The notes: generated by a model from the sequence alone, not told the origin. 64,000 bases of DNA from an archaeon (GCA_020057405.1 JAGVFW010000013.1:1-64000), one strand, 5' to 3'; shown: positions 5,171 through 41,038, counted from the stretch's first letter. Translations and numbers: made by a program.

Positions 5171-5479
5171 ATGTCCCCACCTGAGACGCTGAGCGTCTAC
5201 CTTTTTGGTTCCGTCCTAGTGGGAAGCGCAGTTTTGGCGATACTCCTCCAGTACTACTCGCAGAAGGCGCGCGGCCACTTTACCAAGGCCGAGGAGCGGA
5301 TTGAAAAGGCCCGAAAGGCGCTTTTGGAAGCGAAGACGAAAGTCCACTCGCTTCGGGCAAAATCAAGGAGCAAGACAACAATAGCGCAGGTGGAGAAGCG
5401 CATCTCCCGCGCAATCGACGACCTGCTGTCGGCAGCCGCGGAAACGGAAAAGGCCTCAGGCAGGACTGCAAGAAGGTGA
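5171..5479 (+). CDS. membrane-anchored coiled-coil protein (basic)
   Basis: N-terminal TM then heptad-like basic helix. Confidence 0.6.
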   Translation: MSPPETLSVYLFGSVLVGSAVLAILLQYYSQKARGHFTKAEERIEKARKALLEAKTKVHSLRAKSRSKTTIAQVEKRISRAIDDLLSAAAETEKASGRTARR

Positions 5480-5486
5480 AGGGAAA

Positions 5487-5756
5487 ATGGTTGAAGACGT
5501 CGGCATCACATCACTGGCTTTCATCGCCGTAAGCGCTTTTGCATTCGCGTGGATGGTGCGCCTGGGCTTCCAGGTACGAAAAAGCATCCGCGACCACTCA
5601 TCACACTTGCACGACCGCATCGACGAACTTGAGGACGCGGCAGTAGAAATCCGAAACGACCTCGAAAAAGTGTCCGACGACTTAAAGGACAAGGTCGACG
5701 ACGATTATGTCGAAAAGCGGATTTCGGGACTCGTTCAGCTGGTCAGCGGAAAGTAA
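5487..5756 (+). CDS. membrane-anchored coiled-coil protein (acidic)
   Basis: GGTGA SD; N-terminal TM then acidic heptad helix. Confidence 0.6.
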   Translation: MVEDVGITSLAFIAVSAFAFAWMVRLGFQVRKSIRDHSSHLHDRIDELEDAAVEIRNDLEKVSDDLKDKVDDDYVEKRISGLVQLVSGK

Positions 5757-6791
5757 TCAGCGAACGACGAAGTCAAGCACCGCCTGCGTTACGTAAGGCG
5801 CGTAGGGCTTGACTCTCCGACCGCCGACAATCTCGCAGTTTCTTCTCGCTTTAGCGCACGCCTTTTGCGCGTCCTTCCTCGCGGTTTCAAGAAAGTCGCC
5901 GTCCTCGGGGCCGATGGAATAGTAGTGGACTGTGCCCCCTGGCCTGCAGGCGGCAATTGCCGCGGGCAGGAAGCGCTTTGCGGTTTTCGGCAATGGCAAG
6001 AGGACGCGGTCGGCCCACGATGCAACGGCCTTTCGCTTTAGGAAAACTGCCGCGTCTGCAAGCACCACTTTCACGTTTGAGGCGCGGTTTAGCCGCACGT
6101 TTTTGCGCATCGACTTTACTGCGGCGGGATTGAGTTCAACGGCAACCACTTGCGCAGTTGGCACTCGCTTCGCAATTTCGATTGCAAAAGGCCCGACGCC
6201 GGCAAAGAGCACAAGCACGCGCTCGTTTGGCTTCACTAGTGACGCAACGCGCTGGCGCTCAAAACCAAGGCGGGGTGAAAAGTAAGACTCGTTGAGGTCG
6301 ACTTCGAGGAGCACGCCGTTCTCCTTGTGGATTGAACGCGTACGCCTTTCGCCTGTAAGGACCTTGACTTTGCGAACGCGGAAGCGGCCTTCGGTGATGC
6401 CCGCTCGCTTTGCAACCACCTTGACGCGCGGGCCTAGGGACTCGAGAAGGCACGCGGCAATCAGCTTTTCCTTTATTCTTAGGGACGGTGGCACGTCGAT
6501 GACGGCAATGTCGCCAACGAGGTCAAACGACGTGACTAGCTCCTGCACCTGGGCTTGGGAAAGGATTTTTCTTTCAAGCAGCAACTGCTTGAATGGCTTT
6601 CGCTCGCTGACTTCAAAGTCGCGCTCGCACTTTAGTGCGGCAAAGGGGAGTTTTGGAAGCGGGCCGGTGACTGGCAGGTAGAACCAGTTTCCCTCGCGAA
6701 CGGCAAAAGCACTTTGGACAATTAGGCCCCGTTCCTTTAGGAAACGCTTCGCCTTTTCGGCGTCCTTTAGCGCAACGCGCAAACCCCGCAT
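5757..6791 (-). CDS. trm5: tRNA m1G37 methyltransferase, Trm5/TYW2 family
   Basis: SFDLVGDIAV, HKENG, YFSPRLGFER, LFAGVGPF, ELNP. Confidence 0.88.
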   Translation of the reverse strand: MRGLRVALKDAEKAKRFLKERGLIVQSAFAVREGNWFYLPVTGPLPKLPFAALKCERDFEVSERKPFKQLLLERKILSQAQVQELVTSFDLVGDIAVIDVPPSLRIKEKLIAACLLESLGPRVKVVAKRAGITEGRFRVRKVKVLTGERRTRSIHKENGVLLEVDLNESYFSPRLGFERQRVASLVKPNERVLVLFAGVGPFAIEIAKRVPTAQVVAVELNPAAVKSMRKNVRLNRASNVKVVLADAAVFLKRKAVASWADRVLLPLPKTAKRFLPAAIAACRPGGTVHYYSIGPEDGDFLETARKDAQKACAKARRNCEIVGGRRVKPYAPYVTQAVLDFVVR

Positions 6792-6837
6792 GGTAAAACC
6801 TAAAAGTAATAAGCTAGTCGCGGGTTAAAAACTGCGC

Positions 6838-7656
6838 ATGGACTTCGCACAATTCGTCACCGAGTATTTCGTCAACCCGATTGAAAAGCCGGGCGAGTAC
6901 GCGCCCTACAACATCGTCAACACAATCGTCTTCGCCATTGCCGCGCTCTTGGCAGCCTACCTGATTTTTAGGGCACTAAAACGCTTTGGCGTGCGGGTGG
7001 ATGAAAAGTTTGCCTTTGCGGTAATGCCTTTTGCGGCCCTTGGCGCAATCGCGCGCGTGCTTTCAGACGCCGCGGTCCTGCCGCGAAAGGTCGAGGTCGC
7101 GGGGATTGCGGCTTATCCGTTCATCACGCCCGGGATTTACATCGTCACGTTCCTACTCTTTGCTGCCGCGTTGGTTCTTGCGCTAAAGTTTTCACGCGAC
7201 TGGCAGACTACGCTAGGCCAGGCCGGAATCGCGCTTTCAATAGTGGCGCTCTTGCCTTTGCTGCCGCTCTTTAAGGAATTCACGGCCCTCGCAATTGTTG
7301 GAGGGCTTGTCGGCGTGGCGCTTGCGGCCTACTGGGTCGTTGGCAAGATGAAGGCCTATCCCCTAACGAAGTTCGGGTGGCTCGTTGCGCTCGGCCAGGG
7401 CCTTGACGGCGCAGCGACGTTTGCGGGGGTTAGCGTGTTTGGCTACGGGGAACAACACGTGCTTGCAAACGCGATTTTCTCTGCCGGCTCGCCGTTCGCG
7501 TTCTTTGCACTAAAAATCGCGTTCGCCTTGGCGGTCGCTTATGCCGCTAGCAGAGAAAAAGACGGGGACGAAAAGAACTTCGTGATGCTACTAATTGCAG
7601 TGATGGGCTTTGCCCCGGGATTAAGGGACGTGCTTCGGGTCGCCGCGGGAGTTTAG
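6838..7656 (+). CDS. DUF63-family membrane protein
   Basis: YNIVNT, PFITPGIY, LDGAATF, YGEQHVL, GFAPGLRD; multi-TM. Confidence 0.8.
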   Translation: MDFAQFVTEYFVNPIEKPGEYAPYNIVNTIVFAIAALLAAYLIFRALKRFGVRVDEKFAFAVMPFAALGAIARVLSDAAVLPRKVEVAGIAAYPFITPGIYIVTFLLFAAALVLALKFSRDWQTTLGQAGIALSIVALLPLLPLFKEFTALAIVGGLVGVALAAYWVVGKMKAYPLTKFGWLVALGQGLDGAATFAGVSVFGYGEQHVLANAIFSAGSPFAFFALKIAFALAVAYAASREKDGDEKNFVMLLIAVMGFAPGLRDVLRVAAGV

Positions 7657-8180
7657 CCTGCGCGGGCGACCTTGATTGCGTCAAGGGCTGAGATCGCTTT
7701 TGCCTGGTTCGCCAGGGACTCGTTGAGAACGGTTCTCGAGTTCCGGATGTAGTCGCCAATCGTAATGGCGCAGCCGAGCGGTATCGTGACGTTTCCGCTG
7801 TTGATGTAGCCGTTAAAGCCGATGTAGTAGAGGCACCCGAAGTTGTCCATGTCCTTGAAGTTTTTCTGCGCCTTTATCACTGAAGCGTTGGTGGAAAGCG
7901 ACTCCAGGCGCGTCTGGGCTGAAGCAATTGCGTCGAGCTTCTCCTGCGAGAATTCCTTTGCCTGCGAGTCTGCGAGGGCCGTGTCGCATGTTGCCTGGTC
8001 GGCCTTGGCTGAGTCAAGGGAGGACTGGAGTTTTCCGTTTGCAGCGTCGGAGGCGTCGCACTTGGTCTGGAGCGTCTGGAGTTGTGAAGTCAGCTCGGCA
8101 ATCTTCGGGTCTGGCGCATTAGACGAGAGGCAGCCGAAAAGAATCGAAGCGGCGATTAAAGCAAGAAACAATTTTTTCAT
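7653..8180 (-). CDS. putative lipoprotein with coiled coil
   Basis: Signal peptide with lipobox LFGC. Confidence 0.65.
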   Translation of the reverse strand: MKKLFLALIAASILFGCLSSNAPDPKIAELTSQLQTLQTKCDASDAANGKLQSSLDSAKADQATCDTALADSQAKEFSQEKLDAIASAQTRLESLSTNASVIKAQKNFKDMDNFGCLYYIGFNGYINSGNVTIPLGCAITIGDYIRNSRTVLNESLANQAKAISALDAIKVARAG

Positions 8181-8259
8181 ACGCGAAGCACCACAAGCCT
8201 TAGCGGCGTGGGGCTTTTAATCCTTGCGCGCAGAAAGTTGTTCCGGTGCCCACCAATCT

Positions 8260-8760
8260 ATGCCCAAAGCCCTCGTGCTGTATGCTTCCGGACAGGGGGC
8301 TTCCGAAGAAATCGCGCGGGCGATTTACGGAGGCGCGAGCGAAACCGGGCTTGAAACTAATTTAGCCAGCGCGGCTTTGGCTCCAACCGTGGCAGACTAC
8401 GACCTCGTCTTTCTTGGAAGCGGGATTTACGGCTTTGGCCGCTTTGACTCAAAAGTTCTTGCGCTTGCAAGGCAGGCCAACTGGCAGGGCAAACGCGCGT
8501 GCGTGTTCGCGACTCACGGCGGCCGGGGGAAAGCTCACGTCGAGGCGGTTGCGGCCGAGCTTGAGGGCAGGGGCGCCAGGCTGTGCGGCACTCTATCGAT
8601 TCAACTGCCCGGCCTTGCGGCGATGATAGGGAAAGGAAAGCCGTCGGAAACGGACATGGTGCGCGCTTTTGCCTTTGGCGAAAAACAGGCGTACGACTTG
8701 ATTGGCAGGCGCCCGGCTAAGGACCAGGAAAAGTCGCGCATCAAGGGCTACCGCAAGTGA
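8260..8760 (+). CDS. flavodoxin-like protein
   Basis: VLYASGQGASEEIA FMN-loop-like motif; YDLVFLGSGIY. Confidence 0.75.
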   Translation: MPKALVLYASGQGASEEIARAIYGGASETGLETNLASAALAPTVADYDLVFLGSGIYGFGRFDSKVLALARQANWQGKRACVFATHGGRGKAHVEAVAAELEGRGARLCGTLSIQLPGLAAMIGKGKPSETDMVRAFAFGEKQAYDLIGRRPAKDQEKSRIKGYRK

Positions 8761-8775
8761 CTTGCGCTATGATGG

Positions 8776-8871
8776 TTACCTGAGGCTCTTGACGTCGCGA
8801 TAGCAGGTGACTGCGAGGCGCCATGCAAACACCGAGACTAGACCGAAAGCTAGGATTGTCCAAAGTTCCAT
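8776..8871 (-). CDS. putative 31-aa single-TM microprotein (MELWTILAFGLVSVFAWRLAVTCYRDVKSLR)
   Basis: Read by hand; starts 8 nt after the upstream gene's stop on the same strand. Confidence 0.4.
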   Translation of the reverse strand: MELWTILAFGLVSVFAWRLAVTCYRDVKSLR

Positions 8872-8878
8872 CTTGTTT

Positions 8879-9253
8879 TCACGCGCTGTTTGCAACTTCG
8901 TAAATCGCCTTTAGAGACACTACAGCAGCGGCAGGTGCGATGACCGCCACGAAGTAGGCGAGTATGGACGGCAGGGTGAATCCGAACCATGCGAAACCCA
9001 CGGCCGACTCAAGGCCCGCAATGACGCCGGAAAAGCTGCCTGCGGCGACAGTAAAGGCAATTGTGGCAACGAGGAACTCAACAGTCTCCTTGCCGTTCAC
9101 GTTGACAACGCCGATGACGAGGCCCATCAAGCCGAGGACTAGGGTAATCATCGGGTTTTGCGGAGCGAAGACGCCTGCGCCGATTGCAAGCACCAGGCCG
9201 ATGAAGAACGCCCAAGCGCCGATGAGCGGCCACGTGTGATTAGCCTTAGCCAT
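8879..9253 (-). CDS. 4-TM membrane protein
   Basis: G-rich SD before ATG 9253; four hydrophobic segments. Confidence 0.7.
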   Translation of the reverse strand: MAKANHTWPLIGAWAFFIGLVLAIGAGVFAPQNPMITLVLGLMGLVIGVVNVNGKETVEFLVATIAFTVAAGSFSGVIAGLESAVGFAWFGFTLPSILAYFVAVIAPAAAVVSLKAIYEVANSA

Positions 9254-17467: not shown

Positions 17468-19705
<2,238 letters not shown>

Positions 19706-33520: not shown

Positions 33521-33594
33521 GCCGCAGTAACTCAGCCTGGGAGAGTGATCGCCTGAAGAGCGATTTGTCGGGTGTTCAAATCACCCCTGCGGCA
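33521..33594 (+). tRNA. tRNA-Phe(GAA); integration target
   Basis: GCCGCAG/CTGCGGC; ATCGC-CTGAAGA-GCGAT; GGGTG-TTCAAAT-CACCC. Confidence 0.96.
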
Positions 33595-33597
33595 TTC
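33577..33597 (+). repeat. attL, 21-bp direct repeat CAAATCACCCCTGCGGCATTC
   Basis: Identical to 38914..38934; covers the tRNA-Phe 3' end. Confidence 0.93.
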
Positions 33598-33645: not shown

Positions 33646-34149
33646 TCAAACTCGCCCTAATGCCTCCCTTCTTCGAAAATAAACTCTACCTACCTGTTCC
33701 CTAGAGGGCGAGTCTATTTTTTCCATAAAATCCTCCCACTTAAGTTGCGAGCCTATGCAGACAAGGACATCGTTACCGTATGCCTCGAAATTCGTATTAT
33801 AAAACTGGGAGGTATTAGCCGGCTGTTGATGCCAAGGATAGTCCTTTAGAATCTTTAATTCCCCGTATTGCTTCGTAACGAAATAGACGTCAACAGTGTT
33901 TCCGTCTTTTGTGTCTTGACGAACTTGAATGAACAAATTAGAACCGCAGTCTGGCGCTATTTCCGCAACAAGCTGCGTACCGTTTTGGCGTAAATATCCA
34001 AATGCAACAATAGAAGCAGAGTCGGCGTAAGATTCGGCCCTTAGGTAGAATGGCATGGAGTCAATAAGACTGCCGGAGTTAACCACTAGTTTTTCGTCAC
34101 CTTCGCTGTAGAACGGTTTCTTGATAGCTATGGCCAAGGCATTCACCAC
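33646..34149 (-). CDS. hypothetical protein, co-transcribed with the integrase
   Basis: GTG start directly after the integrase stop. Confidence 0.6.
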   Translation of the reverse strand: MVNALAIAIKKPFYSEGDEKLVVNSGSLIDSMPFYLRAESYADSASIVAFGYLRQNGTQLVAEIAPDCGSNLFIQVRQDTKDGNTVDVYFVTKQYGELKILKDYPWHQQPANTSQFYNTNFEAYGNDVLVCIGSQLKWEDFMEKIDSPSREQVGRVYFRRREALGRV

Positions 34150-35286
34150 CTATTTTTCTGATGGCAGGAGCAATTTTAAGCTCCTCATGGACTGCTGAAA
34201 ACCACTCCACGCTCCTCTCCTCATTAGCTCTTGTTGGAAGTGTTTCTTGTTGCTGCCGTCTTGAAGGTAGACGGCCATTGCGTGAATTATTGTTGCAAGG
34301 TCGGCGTCAATTCTCGTCGGGTCATTCTTTCCATAAAGCTCTTCGAACTTTTCCTGCACTAGGTAACGGTCGGCGTGAACGTACCTGGCCGTCATGTCCG
34401 AGTCCGGCCTCCAACCGAAGTAATACTTTAGCTGCTGGTCAGTCAGGTGCTTGGCCATTTCGCTTGCCCTGGCGTGCCGCCATGAATGCGGATTGAGTTT
34501 CTTGTTAATTCCCGCAAGTTTCTGTAGGCGAGCAATAGTGTTACAAGCGGCGGCGTAAGACAATTGCTTGCCCCATCCGTTAAGCCACAGGGGAACGTTG
34601 GAATTTTTCTCGAACTTCCTCGGGTGAACGTCAAGATATACCTGCATGAATTCCAAGGCCAACGGCCAGCCAACTGGCACAATCCTTTCACCAGTCTTGC
34701 CGTCTAGCCTAACGAGCGTCTCGTTTCCTTCCTTGAAGACATCACTTACTTTCAGGTTGAGCATTTCGCCGATGCGGGCGCCCGTAGCGTAAAGAAGAGA
34801 GATGAACGCCTTTTCCTGCAGGCTAGCGGTTTGGTCGATTATGCGCTTTACTTCCTCTTCTGAAATCAGTTTTGACGGGTGAAGTAACGCCGGATGAGGC
34901 TTTGCCATGTAGAAGTTGTCAAGTATGCCAGGGTAGCGTTTCCCTTCGCCTAACAGCCATTTATAGAAAGTGCGAGTGGTTAGGAAGAGGTCAAACTTGT
35001 AGGGTTCAGAAATCGGCTTGCCTCTCTTGGCAGTTGCCTGCCTTATCTTGCGGGCAAGCTCCTCCAGGTCGTCTTTGGTAGCGTCCTTGAAATGCTTGCC
35101 TAGAAGGTCAGAAATCTTGCGCAGTTGCCAAGAGCGCTTAAACCGGAGTCGCAGGCTTTTTCCCTGCGCTTCCAGATAAGCTAGGTAGCGTTTCGCCAGT
35201 TCTGCTTCCTCAGGCTGCATCGCTTTGAAGGCGGTAAACTGCCTCGCAATCATCCGTTCCCCTTGCTCCAATTGTTCCGAGTTCAT
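34150..35286 (-). CDS. tyrosine recombinase/integrase
   Basis: TGARIGE (R), GKTG (K), HSWRH (HxxR), FGW, RYVH (Y); probable ATG 35286. Confidence 0.95.
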   Translation of the reverse strand: MNSEQLEQGERMIARQFTAFKAMQPEEAELAKRYLAYLEAQGKSLRLRFKRSWQLRKISDLLGKHFKDATKDDLEELARKIRQATAKRGKPISEPYKFDLFLTTRTFYKWLLGEGKRYPGILDNFYMAKPHPALLHPSKLISEEEVKRIIDQTASLQEKAFISLLYATGARIGEMLNLKVSDVFKEGNETLVRLDGKTGERIVPVGWPLALEFMQVYLDVHPRKFEKNSNVPLWLNGWGKQLSYAAACNTIARLQKLAGINKKLNPHSWRHARASEMAKHLTDQQLKYYFGWRPDSDMTARYVHADRYLVQEKFEELYGKNDPTRIDADLATIIHAMAVYLQDGSNKKHFQQELMRRGAWSGFQQSMRSLKLLLPSEK

Positions 35287-35450
35287 CTTCTCCACCAAAC
35301 GCCACTACCAATTCAATTACCGCCTGCACCACCGTTTTTGAAACTGCCATCCAAAACCACCTCCGCAAAACGCTTTTTGCAATAGAAGAGCAAATGAAAT
35401 GCCTCAGGCTCAGAGAGTTCTTGTCTGCAAAGCGAGCACTTCATTCGACT

Positions 35451-35522: not shown

Positions 35523-35660
35523 ATGGCACGTGTGAAAACTAGTATTTCAATCGATGAGGAAACCTGGAAGGAGTTTCGCAAGAAGTGCATCGACGTAGGT
35601 AAAGATGCCAGCACAGTTCTCGAGGAACTCATGCATCGGTGGTTAAAGGAAAAAAGCTAG
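35523..35660 (+). CDS. ribbon-helix-helix (CopG-like) regulator, 45 aa
   Basis: Read by hand: MARVKTSISIDEETWKEFRKKCIDVGKDASTVLEELMHRWLKEKS. Confidence 0.8.
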   Translation: MARVKTSISIDEETWKEFRKKCIDVGKDASTVLEELMHRWLKEKS

Positions 35661-35687
35661 CCTCATTTTGAAGTTTTTGGTGAAATA

Positions 35688-36857
35688 ATGGCTGTTGAAG
35701 AAACGCTTCGGGTCGTCGAAGAAATGGATCGCGACAAAGGCAAACGCGTAGCTAGAGTTAGTAGAGAGACAATGCAAAAATTGTCTCTTGAAACCGGGGA
35801 CCGAATCAAAATTGTCGGCAAGAAAACAACCCTCGGGCTCGTCTTACCAGCACACACAGAAGACGAAAAACTCGATATCATTAGAATTAGCGACATTTTG
35901 AGAGCATCCGCGGCAGTTGAACTTAACCAATTAGTTAAAATATCAAAAATCGATGGCGAAATAGCTAGTCTAGTCGTATTAGCACCAAAACAACCAACTG
36001 CCTACGCGCCCGGATTTGACCAGTACGTCAAAAAGAATCTCATCGGCAAGCCTATCGAGACTGGAGAAATAGTTGAGATAAAAGTGTATGAAACTAGCTA
36101 TCCATTTACCGTCATAACAACTGTTCCCGACAGTGTTGTCGTAGTTAGTTATGAAACCGAAGTAAAACTAAGTACCGAACCGTCTGGGATGATTGACTCA
36201 AAAATATTCAGAGATAGAAAGTTTTTAGAAAGAAAATTAAAGTTTTTGAAAAACCGAACGAATAAGTCCAAGGCCGTATTGACAACGGAGTGGGGTTTGA
36301 CCGGAATAAACATTACCGGAAATATAATCCAACTCAATGAAGATGGATTTAAACAATTGAACGTAACAACTGGAGACATAGTTGAAATCACTAACCAGTT
36401 TGACTCGGATTCATTAGAACAAAAAACGGTTTTAGCTAGAGTCGAACCAATTACCGTCGGAAAATTCAATTTTGCAAGAATGCCGGAGAGTATTAAGGAC
36501 GAATTAATTCTTTCAAGTTCATCAAAAAATATTGAAATCCGAAAATCAACGCTTAAACCGGCTAAGAAAATAGCGCTAGTTCGTCAATCGTTCGGACACG
36601 CATTTTTACCATCAGATTACGAAATTAATCTCCTTAAATTAGACTCGATGTTAGACCGATTATTGTTGCCCGGAGATTCTTTCGACGTTGCCGTAAAGAA
36701 TTCCAGCATTCCATTAGTTGTTGAAAAAATCGAGCCCATCGGCCCTACCATTGTAACAAAGGACACAATCGTCGAATTTACTGAAAAGCCATTAAATCAC
36801 AACCAGCTTCTTGAAGATTTCCAAGCATTACGACAATATCTACAAAACAAAGCCTGA
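35688..36857 (+). CDS. tandem Cdc48 N-domain protein without an ATPase domain
   Basis: Two repeats alignable by eye to the host Cdc48 N-domain ([33 protein letters not shown]; [12 protein letters not shown]); no Walker motifs. Confidence 0.85.
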   Translation: MAVEETLRVVEEMDRDKGKRVARVSRETMQKLSLETGDRIKIVGKKTTLGLVLPAHTEDEKLDIIRISDILRASAAVELNQLVKISKIDGEIASLVVLAPKQPTAYAPGFDQYVKKNLIGKPIETGEIVEIKVYETSYPFTVITTVPDSVVVVSYETEVKLSTEPSGMIDSKIFRDRKFLERKLKFLKNRTNKSKAVLTTEWGLTGINITGNIIQLNEDGFKQLNVTTGDIVEITNQFDSDSLEQKTVLARVEPITVGKFNFARMPESIKDELILSSSSKNIEIRKSTLKPAKKIALVRQSFGHAFLPSDYEINLLKLDSMLDRLLLPGDSFDVAVKNSSIPLVVEKIEPIGPTIVTKDTIVEFTEKPLNHNQLLEDFQALRQYLQNKA

Positions 36858-36925
36858 GTTAAACACAAAATAGCGTCCACTACTACCAACCATTAACTTT
36901 AAATTAACCTATCATTAAATAGTTA

Positions 36926-38308
36926 ATGATAACCGTGGACATTGCAACCCTGAAAAAATTGATTGAGTCCGGCGAGGGCAACACCGTAGAATTTCAGCAA
37001 GCTGTAGCAAAGGACACGGGCCGAACTATATGTGCTTTCGCCAATACCGATGGCGGCCACCTGATTATTGGAGTGGAAAAGAATGGCGGAATCGTGGGAC
37101 TTGAACGGGCAAAGTTAGATGACCTCCAACAAGCTGTTTCAAACTCCTACAAAATTTGTAGCCCCGTTCCGTTAACACAAGTAGGCACCGTAGAAATCGA
37201 CGGTAAGTATGTCCTAGTTATTTCAACCGCAAAGCTGGGGGATGGCGTATGCTATTACGCAGATGAAATTTTGCTTAGGGTTGGAAGCACCAACCATAAA
37301 CTCACCGGGCCAGCCATCGAAGAGTTTCTACGAAAAAATCGCGTAATCAACTTTGACTGGACGCGAAGTTCGGCCAAACTTCAAGACGTAGATACAGAAA
37401 AAATGAAAAAGTACATGAACCGTAGGTCGCCAAATTATTTGTTCGACCCTGCCAGCGAAAAGGCTTTAAAAAACCTCCTTATTTCGCTTCATTTGGCGGG
37501 AGAAAACGGCGACTTTTACGTAAGGAATGGCGGCGTCCTGTTCTTCGCCAAGCACCCTGAAACTTTTATCCCGCAAAACAAGGTGAAGTTAGTCCGATTC
37601 AAGGGCAAAATACCAGTGGACGTGTTGGACATACTCGTCCTACAAAATACGCTTGTGGAAAATATCGAGGAAAGCCTGGCCTTTATCCGCCGAAGCACCC
37701 GCAAGAGCTACGAAATAAAGAACCTTGAACGAGAAGAAAAAACTGAGTACCCTGAAATCGCAATCAGGGAAGCAATAGTCAACGCCCTCGTCCATCGCGA
37801 CTACTTCAGCTCTGCCGTGGTACAGGTCAATGTCTTTGACGACAGGATAGACATTGCAAACCCCGGAATGCTCCCAACAGGAATAAGCCCCGAGGATTTG
37901 TCATCACTTGGACTAGGAGTGCCACGTAACCCAATCATCTACCAGATGTTGATAGACATCAAGGTGGTTGAAGGCATAGGAACCGGCATTCCACGAATGA
38001 TTTCGGCAATGCGGGACGCAGGATTGCCAGATCCCGAGTTCAGACAATTGGGTCCATTGTTCAAAACCACGCTGTTTAACGCCTTCCCCAACCAAGCAGG
38101 CAATCTCAACGTCAGGCAAAGGCGCTCCCTGATTTACTTGAAGGATAACAGCATCATCACCGCACCACAGTACCGAAAAATGTTCAAGATAAGCCACCCA
38201 ATCGCAGTCGACGACCTCAACAAGCTCATCAAGCTCGGACTCGTCAAGAAGAGAGGGCGGGGACCGGCAACGGCCTACGTACTAGCAAAACCTAAAATAA
38301 AGCAATAA
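36926..38308 (+). CDS. Schlafen/AlbA_2 + HATPase_c_4 + wHTH protein (RecG-C-like family)
   Basis: GEGNTVEF, ICAFANTDGGHLIIGV; AIREAIVNALVHRDY, DRIDIANPG, PRNP, GTGIPRM; C-terminal wHTH. Confidence 0.88.
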   Translation: MITVDIATLKKLIESGEGNTVEFQQAVAKDTGRTICAFANTDGGHLIIGVEKNGGIVGLERAKLDDLQQAVSNSYKICSPVPLTQVGTVEIDGKYVLVISTAKLGDGVCYYADEILLRVGSTNHKLTGPAIEEFLRKNRVINFDWTRSSAKLQDVDTEKMKKYMNRRSPNYLFDPASEKALKNLLISLHLAGENGDFYVRNGGVLFFAKHPETFIPQNKVKLVRFKGKIPVDVLDILVLQNTLVENIEESLAFIRRSTRKSYEIKNLEREEKTEYPEIAIREAIVNALVHRDYFSSAVVQVNVFDDRIDIANPGMLPTGISPEDLSSLGLGVPRNPIIYQMLIDIKVVEGIGTGIPRMISAMRDAGLPDPEFRQLGPLFKTTLFNAFPNQAGNLNVRQRRSLIYLKDNSIITAPQYRKMFKISHPIAVDDLNKLIKLGLVKKRGRGPATAYVLAKPKIKQ

Positions 38309-38367
38309 TTAAGAACCTAAAGATAGGTTAATAAATACTTAAAGATACAATAATCTGGGAAGCAGAA

Positions 38368-38619
38368 ATGGAAATAACTGGAATTAAGCTTTTTGACAAA
38401 CCGAACATAGCGCTTACTTTCGTCTTTAATGGAAATCAGAGGCAGGAAGTAAGCTTTAACTTGCTTGGAATAATTCTCATCGCCCTAAGCTTGTTCATCC
38501 TGGTTTTTTCAGAGTCATTCCCTCAGCCGATACAGGGGTGGTTTCAAAGTCTGGGGGCGGCAATGCTGATAGCTGGAATCGTAATTTACGGACTAACTAA
38601 AAAACAAAAAGGCAAGTAA
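38368..38619 (+). CDS. small two-TM protein (element cargo)
   Basis: Two hydrophobic helices and a basic tail. Confidence 0.6.
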   Translation: MEITGIKLFDKPNIALTFVFNGNQRQEVSFNLLGIILIALSLFILVFSESFPQPIQGWFQSLGAAMLIAGIVIYGLTKKQKGK

Positions 38620-38621
38620 CC

Positions 38622-38858
38622 ATGTTGCAAGAGCTACTTCAATCAAAAAATCCCCTGATAAAAATAGTGACGATAACCGCGATTGGTTTAGTCGTCTTCA
38701 TAGTCTTCGGGATTCTCTCAATCATCCTCCTGCCCTGGATAGCCCAAAAGCAGGGAGCGACTCTTGGTCCTCAGGAGTGGCTTGCGTTCTACACTAACCT
38801 ACTTGCCGGAATTGCCACCAGCATTACCATCGGTATACTGTTCTTTCTTCAAAAATAG
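38622..38858 (+). CDS. small two-TM protein (element cargo)
   Basis: Two hydrophobic helices; 2 nt after the previous stop. Confidence 0.6.
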   Translation: MLQELLQSKNPLIKIVTITAIGLVVFIVFGILSIILLPWIAQKQGATLGPQEWLAFYTNLLAGIATSITIGILFFLQK

Positions 38859-38913
38859 TCAAATACCGTCGGCGTTCTATGCCTCCGGTTCTCCCCGTCT
38901 TTTGACTTTTGGG

Positions 38914-38934
38914 CAAATCACCCCTGCGGCATTC
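38914..38934 (+). repeat. attR, 21-bp direct repeat
   Basis: Identical to 33577..33597. Confidence 0.93.
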
Positions 38935-39024: not shown

Positions 39025-40503
39025 ATGAAAAGCTTGGAAACACCATCGATTGCGCGTTTTCTATTGCTTGCTGCAATAATGATTTTGATTTCGCTTATGC
39101 TGACGAACTCGGAGTTTACAGGAAAAAGCACGGGCGGAGTTGTTTTGAATCTTCCGAATTTAAACCCTGGCGCCATAATTCAAACTACGCCGGGCCCCAG
39201 TCCCACCGCGTCGCCGCAACCCTCCCCGTCTCCCACGCCCCGACCTACTCCTTCGCCCAGCCCCTCGACAACTCCGAGCCCGTCTCCAAGCGTTTCACCA
39301 AGCCCCAGTCCCTCTCCCACGCCAACTCCAAATCCGGACTTCGCGTGTGGGGTTAATGAAAGCGGAAAGACGAAGCGCTTCGTTTCATCCTGCGGCGACT
39401 TGAATCAGTCGAACAGCGCCTATTTCCTCACGCGAGACATCATCAACTCTAACAACGAATACTGTTTCACCATCTCGGCCGACAACGTTGTTCTTGATTG
39501 CGGCAACCGCCGGATTGACGGCGACGGTTCCGGTTACGCGGCAATCTTTGCCAAATCTAGGACTAATATAAGCGTAGTCAAGTGCAGCATGACTGACTGG
39601 TTCTACGGCGTGGAGGGAGAGTCTATCGGCAAAAGCGCCTTTTCCTGCAACAAATTCTCGAACCACATGTATGGCGGATTGCAATTCGACCGCGTTACGG
39701 ACTCGGCAGCATTCAACAACACGTTCCTTTCTGGAGTTTATCAAGCGGCCGAATTAATGCGCTCTAACCGCAATTCATTTAATGAAAACAGCATTTTGAA
39801 CGGCTTTGTCGGAGCACTGCTGACTCGGTCGTCACTCAATACGTTTTACAAAAACAAGTTCATCGGCCCCACCCAGCCCATAACCCTGATAGAAAACTCG
39901 AATGCGAACATCGTATCGGAAAACACGCTTAATGGCCCCGTAAATCCAGGCATACTCGTCATCAATAGCCGCTCTAACACGCTCGAACTGAATAAGATCA
40001 CTTCGGGAAGCGGAGCGCACTTGATTGACCTGCTTGTTGCAAACGGTACCTCGATTCGAGACAACTATTTGGTACCTGCTCCTGGAGCGGCTGCAATCCG
40101 ACTAGATCGATCCCAAAGCAATACATTGCTCAGAAACAAGATAGTGGGAAGCCAACTCTGTCCGGAGGGAATCTTGGTTGGCGAAGCAGGTGACGAGCAG
40201 CCTTCCAAGTTAAACACTATCGCCTATAACGACATTACGGGCTGCTTGTTCGGCCTCAACATCGATAACTCTGACGCGGACCGGATTATTTCAAACAAAA
40301 TAGCCGGCTTCGGTATTAGCGGCATTTTCCTTACGCTGTCCAGCAACGAGTACTTGGCGTCAAATCGTGTTTGTGGCGCCAAATTTCCTAACGCCGACAT
40401 TAGTGCGGAATCCTCTAGCGGCACGGGCAGGGAAAACACTTGCGACACTACTTCTTATTGGAACGACCAGGGACAAACCGGCTGCACATACCGGTGCAGC
40501 TAG
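39025..40503 (+). CDS. surface protein: N-terminal anchor, Pro/Ser/Thr linker, parallel beta-helix (NosD-like) repeats
   Basis: TM/signal; (PS/PT)n linker; [13 protein letters not shown]; Asn-ladder repeats (SNxNxxxxN). Confidence 0.8.
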
Positions 40504-40738: not shown

Positions 40739-41038
40739 ATGTTTGGCCTTGACGAGTACGCGAAAAAGAAAGCCAAAGAAATAGAGGCAAAGCTCGCCCG
40801 AACGATAATGCTGGTTCAGGTGTTCGTCTTTGTCGCAGTTGCCTCGGTTGGCCTTCTTATTGGCTCTTTTTTCCTAGAGTCGGTTGAGCTAACTGAAATA
40901 GGCGTCGTCCTCGTAATTGCGGCAGCCGCTGCAGTTATGGTTGGCTCAAGGCTCTGGCGGATTTACAACGAGATAAAACAGGAAGCCCTCAGCTTCGTCG
41001 AAGACCAAAAAAGAAAGATTTCCGGGACGCAGAAGTAA
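40739..41038 (+). CDS. two-TM membrane protein
   Basis: Hydrophobic hairpin. Confidence 0.6.
   Translation: MFGLDEYAKKKAKEIEAKLARTIMLVQVFVFVAVASVGLLIGSFFLESVELTEIGVVLVIAAAAAVMVGSRLWRIYNEIKQEALSFVEDQKRKISGTQK

Follow-up and report, generated by a model that had tools for sequence, protein, structure and literature searches.

A protein of two Cdc48 N-domains without an ATPase, carried by an element integrated at tRNA-Phe in a small-genome archaeon

The stretch of archaeal DNA analysed here, 64,000 nucleotides (nt) long (GCA_020057405.1, JAGVFW010000013.1:1-64000; hereafter the window), contains a small integrative element inserted at a tRNA-Phe gene. Within this element lies the gene for a 389-residue protein, hereafter called P0001, that is built from two tandem Cdc48 N-domains and carries no ATPase domain. 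The genome to which the window belongs is represented by a 1.22-Mb assembly in 17 contigs that is 90.6% complete, and the closest named matches to the N-domain of its own Cdc48 come from Micrarchaeota-type (DPANN) archaea. The initial annotation, made from the sequence alone, had described an element bounded by attachment (att) sites with a cassette of co-oriented genes at positions 35,523 to 38,858, and had proposed that P0001 and a neighbouring Schlafen-like protein of the AlbA_2 family, hereafter called P0002, belong to a new defence system. The features needed for P0001 and for the borders of the element are as follows, with positions counted from the first letter of the window.

35688-36857, plus strand: P0001, an open reading frame (ORF) of 389 amino acids (ORF list, Pfam)
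35688-36191, plus strand: module 1 of P0001, residues 1-168, a complete Cdc48 N-domain with double-psi barrel and beta-clam (CDC48_N and CDC48_2)
36192-36296, plus strand: inter-module linker of P0001, residues 169-203, in the AlphaFold2 model a helix and then a low-confidence stretch
36297-36857, plus strand: module 2 of P0001, residues 204-389, a strongly diverged N-domain with a C-terminal helix (CDC48_2, BLASTP, AlphaFold2, Foldseek)
17492-19705, plus strand: host Cdc48, 737 amino acids, N-D1-D2, the sole other CDC48_N match in the genome and the presumed functional counterpart of P0001
33521-33594, plus strand: tRNA-Phe (GAA), the integration target (ARAGORN)
33577-33597, plus strand: attL core, an exact 21-nt repeat overlapping the tRNA-Phe 3' end (repeat search)
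38914-38934, plus strand: attR core, the second 21-nt copy (repeat search)

The 3' end of the tRNA-Phe gene recurs 5,337 bp downstream (direct repeat 33564-33597 and 38901-38934), and the 21-nt att pattern within this repeat has two matches in the window against none expected from 100 shuffles. The guanine-plus-cytosine (GC) content is 0.43-0.48 between the repeats and 0.55-0.58 outside them, and the interval holds seven ORFs. In G001, a genome from the same genus in which the tRNA-Phe gene is 96% identical to that of the window, a homologue of window positions 40747-41016 (66% identity) begins about 100 nt past the tRNA gene, and the element is therefore absent from that genome; this comparison concerns a single same-genus genome and is imperfect, with the near flank on a different G001 contig. 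All three marks of a tRNA-integrated element of the tyrosine-recombinase type were thus found, namely an integrase gene, a repeat with one copy on the 3' end of the tRNA gene, and a related genome in which the site is empty, and the att-bounded element of the initial annotation is confirmed. The locus is a 5.34-kb integrative element with mosaic cargo in the tRNA-Phe gene of a small-genome archaeon, and it was acquired recently. No replication, capsid or transfer/conjugation gene was recognised among its seven ORFs in Pfam, NCBIfam or PHROGs, and the element is either non-autonomous or reliant on functions that were not recognised.

Residues 7-166 of P0001 matched both sub-domains of the Cdc48 N-domain (CDC48_N, E 2.6e-24; CDC48_2, E 5.6e-21). 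Both scores for module 1 were well above the respective Pfam cut-offs (PF02359, 85.7 bits against 35.1; PF02933, 74.4 bits against 22.4), and the nearest solved relative of the protein was VAT-N (1cz4, E 4.6e-15). When residues 171-389 were scanned alone, CDC48_2 was again found above its cut-off (E 2.1e-9, 37.3 bits against 22.4), and CDC48_N remained below its own (E 0.023, 15.3 bits against 35.1). By pairwise BLASTP, residues 207-386 of module 2 align to residues 15-188 of the host Cdc48 with 28% identity over 193 columns (E 4e-12), and the C-terminal helix of module 2 aligns to the N-D1 linker and the start of D1 of the host protein (alignment A2). In the AlphaFold2 prediction for the full chain, the predicted local distance difference test (pLDDT) was 85-92 for module 1 and 29-78 for module 2, with a helix at residues 171-190 and values below 50 at residues 176-206. 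Module 2 predicted alone, from an N-domain alignment, reached a pLDDT of 68.9 and a predicted template modelling score (pTM) of 0.61. In this model the order of strands and helices matches that of module 1 one for one, with a helix at the end. A Foldseek search with the model returned 223 PDB chains at E <= 1e-3, headed by the N-domains of p97, Cdc48, VAT and PEX1 (best E 3.5e-8, 160-195 columns, template modelling score up to 0.67 by target); the PDB titles among these matches include the p97 N-D1 mutants R86A, R95G and R155H.

Walker A and Walker B patterns are absent from P0001, as is any match to the AAA family (PF00004); the host Cdc48 has two Walker A matches. The match of P0001 to TIGR01243 covers positions 3-166 only and scores 146.5 bits against a cut-off of 802.65. 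Because it has neither the D1/D2 domains nor the Walker motifs and falls short of the TIGR01243 cut-off, P0001 does not belong to the CDC48 ATPase family. Its whole chain is made up of two N-domain modules with a helix after each. Pfam, BLASTP, AlphaFold2, Foldseek and the motif scan therefore agree with the initial annotation that the protein comprises two tandem Cdc48 N-domains without Walker A or B. The accompanying prediction that 35688-36857 would yield two modules of CDC48_N plus CDC48_2 held for both sub-domains of module 1 and for the fold and the CDC48_2 match of module 2, and failed for the CDC48_N match of module 2, which was sub-threshold. P0001 is a real and intact ORF: a frame of 389 open codons has a chance of 2.3e-12 at the composition of the gene, a ribosome-binding-like GGTGA stands 6 nt before the ATG (read by eye), and the ATG lies 27 nt past the gene for a ribbon-helix-helix (RHH) protein. 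Nor does the sequence look like that of a decaying gene: the fold is complete in each module, and no stop interrupts the 389 codons.

The origin of the two modules was examined by comparison with housekeeping Cdc48 proteins. Identity to the host Cdc48 N-domain is 50% for module 1 and 73-89% for the housekeeping N-domains of the order. A maximum-likelihood tree of 47 N-domains placed module 1 among the Cdc48 proteins of the host's order (clade support 90/91) and outside the host's own family group. Its end branch measured 1.84 against a median of 0.16; module 2, with a branch of 7.77, cannot be placed. In a tree without module 2, P0011, P0012 and L093, the clade formed by the order and module 1 had support of 94/90, and the module 1 branch measured 2.1 against a median of 0.18. 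Module 1 thus appears to descend from a Cdc48 of the host's order, with a rate of evolution about 12 times that of the housekeeping copies. The GC content at third codon positions (GC3) is 0.37 in P0001, the lowest value in the element; the AlbA_2 gene (0.55), the integrase gene (0.61) and the host cdc48 gene (0.67) all lie higher. These differences indicate that P0001 is no recent duplicate of the host cdc48 and give the cargo its mosaic appearance.

Over 153 aligned positions, module 1 and module 2 share 27 residues, and module 2 shares 48 with the host Cdc48. The divergence between the modules would fit either an early duplication or two separate captures. Because the C-terminal helix retained in module 2 can be aligned to the N-D1 linker and the first part of D1, the unit from which P0001 is built resembles a 5' fragment captured from a cdc48 gene. 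Among 41 housekeeping N-domains of the class, conservation reaches 90% or more in 49 columns; 31 of these are retained in module 1 and 15 in module 2. The positions lost from module 1 probably include a stretch aligned with what we take to be the loop that faces D1 in p97. A stretch of 17 residues in module 1 is identical to the host Cdc48. The corresponding DNA (36113-36163 against 17806-17856) is 88% identical over 51 nt, the same 51 nt are 72-87% identical to the cdc48 genes of many relatives, and this is the sole conservation at the DNA level in P0001.

Further proteins of the same form were sought in several collections. The 90% cluster of P0001 has one member, from one contig. A word-index search among proteins of similar length gave 12 matches including P0001 itself, the other 11 being Cdc48 proteins or fragments with 41-54% query coverage. 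The corresponding search among shorter proteins gave five matches, all singletons, of which P0014-P0016 are housekeeping-type N-domains that end at or just before the start of D1. An exhaustive phmmer search with residues 171-389 against 1.84 billion representatives recovered P0001 only. Among 60 relatives, 59 had exactly one match and one had none (60 of 61 genomes counting G000), every match spanned module 1 only, and no second P0001-like gene was found. The matched frames in these genomes are of Cdc48 size except for three (267, 454 and 115 amino acids), whose identities match those of the housekeeping genes of their genera. In a sample of the phylum, a CDC48_N match was found in 383 of 401 genomes, a count that includes two genomes flagged as unpublished (G241 and G094), and it was mostly single among the matches listed (150, with 289 further ones unlisted). 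None of the ten genomes with two or more CDC48_N matches contained an N-only gene on re-examination. In nine of the ten, the additional match was weak (19.8-27.4 bits) and lay in a frame of 499-537 amino acids in eight cases and in a frame of 199 amino acids near a contig start in one; the tenth, G253, encodes three full-length Cdc48 paralogues.

A second, weak CDC48_N match of 20-27 bits in an open frame of about 500-537 amino acids was seen in many relatives, and none was reported in G000. These matches may represent a single-ring AAA protein with a diverged N-domain. Examples, by genome, contig and position, are:

G018:C35:52404-52628, G012:C45:11630-11872, G013:C5:40212-40430, G071:C2:135572-135793 and G073:C3:101859-102080

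Mobile and environmental DNA was covered as well. The P0001 protein and alignment A1 gave pattern matches in the viral contigs of IMG/VR, none of them confirmed, and a tblastn search of phage records with P0001 gave no match. The same search of plasmids gave 17 matches with at most 42% coverage and no tandem form; nine of these lie under genes for CDC48 family AAA ATPases, one under a 'hypothetical protein' and seven under no listed feature in the PLSDB gene table, which is incomplete. With AAA clusters excluded, the ESM Atlas contained 24 clusters of 160-200 amino acids that have only CDC48_N/CDC48_2, and two of the three displayed are labelled 'Fragment'. Genuine stand-alone proteins and fragments from contig ends are indistinguishable among these clusters, which serve as a lead only. 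Within the limits of these searches, the tandem form represented by P0001 is a singleton.

The host genome encodes the alpha and beta subunits of the 20S proteasome. Its Cdc48 accounts for the only AAA matches above 60 bits, and no PAN-like AAA protein was found in the 90.6%-complete genome. The C-terminus of the host Cdc48 (...EEQPGIS) is without a hydrophobic-Tyr-X motif when read by eye. In the parts of the literature that were covered, archaeal Cdc48 is described as acting as a proteasomal ATPase and the VAT N-domain as regulatory (PMC3493965, PMC5423775).

The remaining genes of the element are the following.

33646-34149, minus strand: orf167, no family, directly downstream of the integrase gene (ORF list)
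34150-35298, minus strand: tyrosine integrase, XerA/XerD-like (PF00589, E 8.6e-24; phrog_1 integrase)
35523-35660, plus strand: RHH protein, 45 amino acids, Arc/CopG-like repressor (phrog_3180, E 4.6e-5; ParG, E 0.001, weak)
36926-38308, plus strand: P0002, 460 amino acids, AlbA_2 (Schlafen-like) plus HATPase_c_4 (Pfam)
38368-38619, plus strand: 83-residue protein, hydrophobic segments at residues 28-46 and 59-77 (Kyte-Doolittle peaks)
38622-38858, plus strand: 78-residue protein, hydrophobic segments at residues 18-36 and 58-76 (Kyte-Doolittle peaks)

The content of the cassette agrees with that first described, namely an RHH protein, P0001, an AlbA_2/HATPase protein and two small proteins that each contain a pair of hydrophobic segments of 19 residues, all on the plus strand. 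The gaps between these genes, in order, are 27, 68, 59 and 2 nt. TATA-like sequences (TTTAAG/TATATA) lie about 10-30 nt upstream of the RHH ATG, and TTTAAAT lies about 24 nt before the ATG of P0002 (both read by eye). The promoter-like boxes of the RHH and AlbA_2 genes, together with the GGTGA of P0001, suggest one unit formed by RHH and P0001 and a separate AlbA_2 unit, and the RHH gene is probably the first of this two-gene unit. No family above cut-off was found for the 83-residue protein in Pfam, NCBIfam or PHROGs, and none for the 78-residue protein in Pfam, PADLOC, NCBIfam or PHROGs. The last four collections gave no match for orf167 either. The integrase has relatives with 83-87% identity over the C-terminus in G007, at tRNA-Phe, and with 52% identity in G005, near tRNA-Pro; its matches to KwaB among the PADLOC models are marginal (E ~1e-3). 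Just outside attR, in a region that extends to about 40640, a gene at 39025-40503 on the plus strand encodes a secreted-looking protein of 492 amino acids (GC 0.51) with a Pro/Ser/Thr-rich linker and NosD/right-handed beta-helix repeats. This region is also missing in G001, and a third att copy was not found in the window; either an older insertion or a locus of variable surface proteins could explain it.

P0002 has both domains of the COG2865 family, AlbA_2 (PF04326, E 1.1e-18, 68.3 bits against a cut-off of 25.3) and HATPase_c_4 (E 3.3e-21), and nothing sets it apart from that family. Its C-terminal region, for which a winged helix-turn-helix had been proposed, gave no Pfam match to such a domain at E <= 0.01. 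The nearest solved relative is 3lmm, an 'uncharacterized protein' (E 1e-13), and a local match to SLFN12 covers 57 residues (E 4e-4). Residues E17, E22 and D65 are invariant in 16 homologues of P0002; the SLFN12 alignment is short and its numbering uncertain, which precludes mapping them onto the Schlafen catalytic triad. Over its full length, P0002 matches the prokaryotic-virus family phrog_12156 (E 2.8e-66). Of 68 genomes of the order, 22 encode homologues with AlbA_2/HATPase_c_4, often several each. Their identity to P0002 is 27-45%, apart from one fragment of 147 residues at 63% and two short matches, and is 31-44% for the 15 order homologues in alignment A3. COG2865 proteins are often annotated as RecG-like helicases or as transcriptional regulators. 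In the part of the source that was covered, the family is labelled replication/repair solely from HHpred similarity to RecG (PMC7641849).

The surroundings of other AlbA_2 genes were searched in 20 AlbA_2 loci of the order that span 2.7-17.4 kb and of which 11 are cut by a contig end; the tblastn queries were the host Cdc48 and each of the seven proteins of the element. The AlbA_2 protein matched in all 20 loci and the integrase in two; none of the 20 contained a relative of P0001, host Cdc48, orf167, RHH or either small membrane protein. On the 2.7 kb seen of contig C72 of G007 (L025, 1-2709), a sister element, whose att end shows a 79% DNA match to that of the window, occupies the same tRNA: after tRNA-Phe at 223-296 there follow, on the minus strand, an AlbA_2 gene (376-1755) and an ORF of 166 amino acids (1825-2325), and then the 3' end of an integrase gene with 83-87% identity to that of the window, inside which the contig ends. 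The AlbA_2 gene is therefore carried in a different position there. No Cdc48-N gene is present on these 2.7 kb, and the 166-residue ORF has no similarity to orf167, which stands at the same position. At a locus in G005 (L075, G005:C43:8249-18326, locus positions 5267-9137), an integrase 52% identical to that of the window lies near tRNA-Pro, and a class I methyltransferase of 261 amino acids and an ORF of 565 amino acids without a family lie between the two, in the same tRNA-cargo-integrase layout as in the window. At a third locus (L034, G050:C28; 3520-4908, 7010-8383 and 8760-9965), two AlbA_2/HATPase_c_4 paralogues 2 kb apart are followed by a tyrosine integrase with 31% identity to that of the window, a further case of AlbA_2 and integrase genes travelling together. 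Among ten neighbours at related loci, Pfam recognised only the methyltransferase and an HSDR_N fragment, and the latter adjoins one close AlbA_2 homologue. The integrase lineage thus carries varied cargo, and the P0002 family travels with integrases independently of P0001.

A recurrent linkage of Cdc48-N-only and AlbA_2 genes, the lack of which the initial annotation had named among the refutations of its proposal of a new system, was consequently not found, either in the 20 AlbA_2 loci or as a second P0001-like gene in the 60 relatives. In these genomes the proposal therefore fails its own test. PADLOC (PADLOC-DB 2.0) called no system among ten proteins and gave no match for P0001, and P0002 matched only parts of pAgo/Aga fusion models (E 1e-27 and 8e-18). 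A predicted complex of P0001 and P0002 (score 0.00, mark 0.32) was computed without controls and carries no weight either way. With no linkage, a singleton P0001, no PADLOC system and a P0002 family that is also a PHROG, a new defence system of a Cdc48-N-only protein and a Schlafen/AlbA_2 effector is not supported, and the two genes do not form a recurrent pair. For the genes of the AlbA_2 protein and of the two small membrane proteins, the best reading is that they are passengers independent of P0001 and not its partners.

The reading that we favour, tentatively and at a probability of roughly 0.4, is that P0001 is a host-derived competitor or mimic, carried by the element, for the ligands of the host Cdc48 N-domain. 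Since the AAA rings are absent, P0001 could only bind such ligands and could not unfold them. If expressed, this soluble and bivalent protein would compete with the host Cdc48 for substrates or adaptors, and the competition would damp or redirect Cdc48/proteasome processing to the benefit of the element, for instance by stabilising element proteins. A less likely variant is that P0001 would deliver these ligands. An adaptor or competitor that retunes the host Cdc48 had been offered as an alternative in the initial annotation, and it appears to be the most plausible mechanism. That the element captured and duplicated the docking domain of the host lineage's only proteasomal unfoldase, and titrates Cdc48 clients by bivalent mimicry, is unlikely when taken as a whole; on that reading, both modules would have evolved fast because they were being tuned to host factors or were in conflict with them.

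Several points weigh against P0001 as a competitor. It is a singleton from one metagenome-style assembly of 17 contigs, and comparative support for any function is nil. The placement of module 1 hangs on a very long branch, with supports that are good and below the top class. The model of module 2 is of moderate confidence, and the N-domain alignment from which it was made biases it towards the N-domain fold. Of the 49 conserved columns, 18 are lost in module 1 and 34 in module 2, and the second conserved GD turn is lost from both modules; because of these losses the ligand sites of both modules may be gone. Finally, we know of no ligand of the archaeal Cdc48 N-domain in this lineage, so that competition is proposed without a named target.

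The same losses count in favour of a second reading, in which P0001 would be a neutral passenger or relic, a captured and duplicated 5' piece of cdc48 that has drifted on mobile DNA with its frame open and without a present function. The protein stands alone in its cluster, a phmmer search with module 2 finds only itself, the branches are extremely long with many conserved positions lost, the GC3 of 0.37 is the lowest of the element, and the C-terminal helix that aligns with the start of D1 resembles a scar of truncation. Against this, unselected drift of such length should have broken the frame, and yet 389 codons are open (chance 2.3e-12) and both modules keep the full order of N-domain secondary structure despite about 2 and about 8 substitutions per site; the gene also has a GGTGA at its start and lies 27 nt behind a repressor gene. 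We regard a relic as somewhat doubtful on this balance. It is distinctly improbable that P0001 is instead a Ufd1-like adaptor or a stand-alone holdase, whose tandem N-domains would recruit clients to the host Cdc48 or keep them soluble. Eukaryotic Ufd1 binds ubiquitin through an N-domain-like fold without an ATPase, and chaperone-like activity has been reported for the isolated VAT N-domain; both precedents would suit such a role, as would the giant-virus UFD1-like proteins found with Foldseek in the viral library (E 2e-8 to 5e-8) and a weak match to UFD1_N2 (E 0.092). That match, however, scores 13.2 bits against a cut-off of 37, no Cdc48-binding motif was recognised in P0001, and the sequence similarity is to the Cdc48 N-domain itself and not to Ufd1.

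Two further explanations give P0001 a partner within the cassette. In the model first proposed, it would serve as a decoy for, or a sensor of, viral proteins directed at Cdc48 and would signal to the putative AlbA_2 nuclease, the membrane proteins or both. The genes are co-oriented with short gaps (27, 68, 59 and 2 nt), regions like AlbA_2/HATPase_c_4 occur inside pAgo and pAgo-associated defence proteins (the PADLOC matches at E 1e-27 and 8e-18), AlbA_2 genes are a patchy accessory of the order (22 of 68 genomes), and one close AlbA_2 homologue lies beside an HSDR_N fragment. These observations are outweighed by the 20 AlbA_2 loci, none of which has a relative of P0001, RHH or the small membrane proteins, by the uniqueness of P0001, and by the related G007 element, which has the AlbA_2 gene and no Cdc48-N gene on the 2.7 kb seen. 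The other nine proteins scanned match PADLOC components at most marginally, the AlbA_2 family also exists as a full-length virus-encoded PHROG, the AlbA_2 gene has its own TATA-like box (by eye), and GC3 values of 0.37 and 0.55 suggest different histories for P0001 and P0002. A sensor coupled to these effectors is very unlikely. Scarcely credible is an addiction pair of the toxin-antitoxin kind, in which P0001 would poison Cdc48-dependent proteostasis under the control of RHH. A small RHH gene directly upstream of a larger gene is the usual type II layout, and the RHH protein has a weak match to ParG, but with 45 residues it is a bare DNA-binding fold without a C-terminal toxin-binding tail, its best matches are Arc-like repressors, and P0001 matches no toxin family in Pfam, PADLOC, NCBIfam or PHROGs.

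P0001 may be compared with several known groups of proteins. With archaeal Cdc48/VAT (TIGR01243) it shares a full N-domain in module 1, 50% identical to that of the host, and the same fold in module 2, but it has two N-domains instead of one, lacks the D1/D2 AAA domains, is borne by a mobile element and has evolved about 12 times faster. Ufd1, which contacts ubiquitin and Npl4/Cdc48, has the same double-psi-barrel and beta-clam fold (UT3) without an ATPase, and giant-virus UFD1-like proteins match P0001 structurally; P0001 differs in that its UFD1 signal is sub-threshold, it has two modules and it is clearly derived from Cdc48. PEX1 and PEX6 are eukaryotic peroxisomal proteins with tandem N-domains (N1-N2). 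Like P0001 they have two consecutive Cdc48-N-like modules, and the PEX1 N-domain 1wlf matches module 2 (Foldseek E 3.5e-7), but their tandem modules precede two AAA domains and P0001 has no ATPase. The element itself resembles small tRNA-integrating archaeal elements in its tRNA target, short att repeat, integrase near attL and low-GC cargo, as well as in the related integrase at the same tRNA in G007, and differs from them in that no replication, capsid or conjugation gene was recognised.

The portions covered of the literature on CDC48_N and on Micrarchaeota integrases and tRNAs contain no description of a tandem, ATPase-less archaeal copy borne by an element, and the titles and abstract starts of the CDC48_N literature mention nothing on prokaryotic mobile elements. 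The Cdc48 passages seen of PMC11090510 treat ATPases and not N-only proteins. Interference with proteostasis by domain mimicry is likewise not described as a strategy of archaeal mobile elements in the portions of the literature that were searched.

The finding concerns one gene in one assembly. It also yields a useful negative result, namely that the pair of Cdc48-N and Schlafen proteins is not recurrent and that the AlbA_2 gene is an ordinary and independently mobile passenger. If P0001 does compete for the ligands of the host Cdc48, it would be a natural dominant-negative probe of what the archaeal Cdc48 N-domain recognises, a question that is poorly answered outside eukaryotes, and it would mean that mobile elements of small-genome (DPANN-type) archaea manipulate the protein turnover of their hosts.

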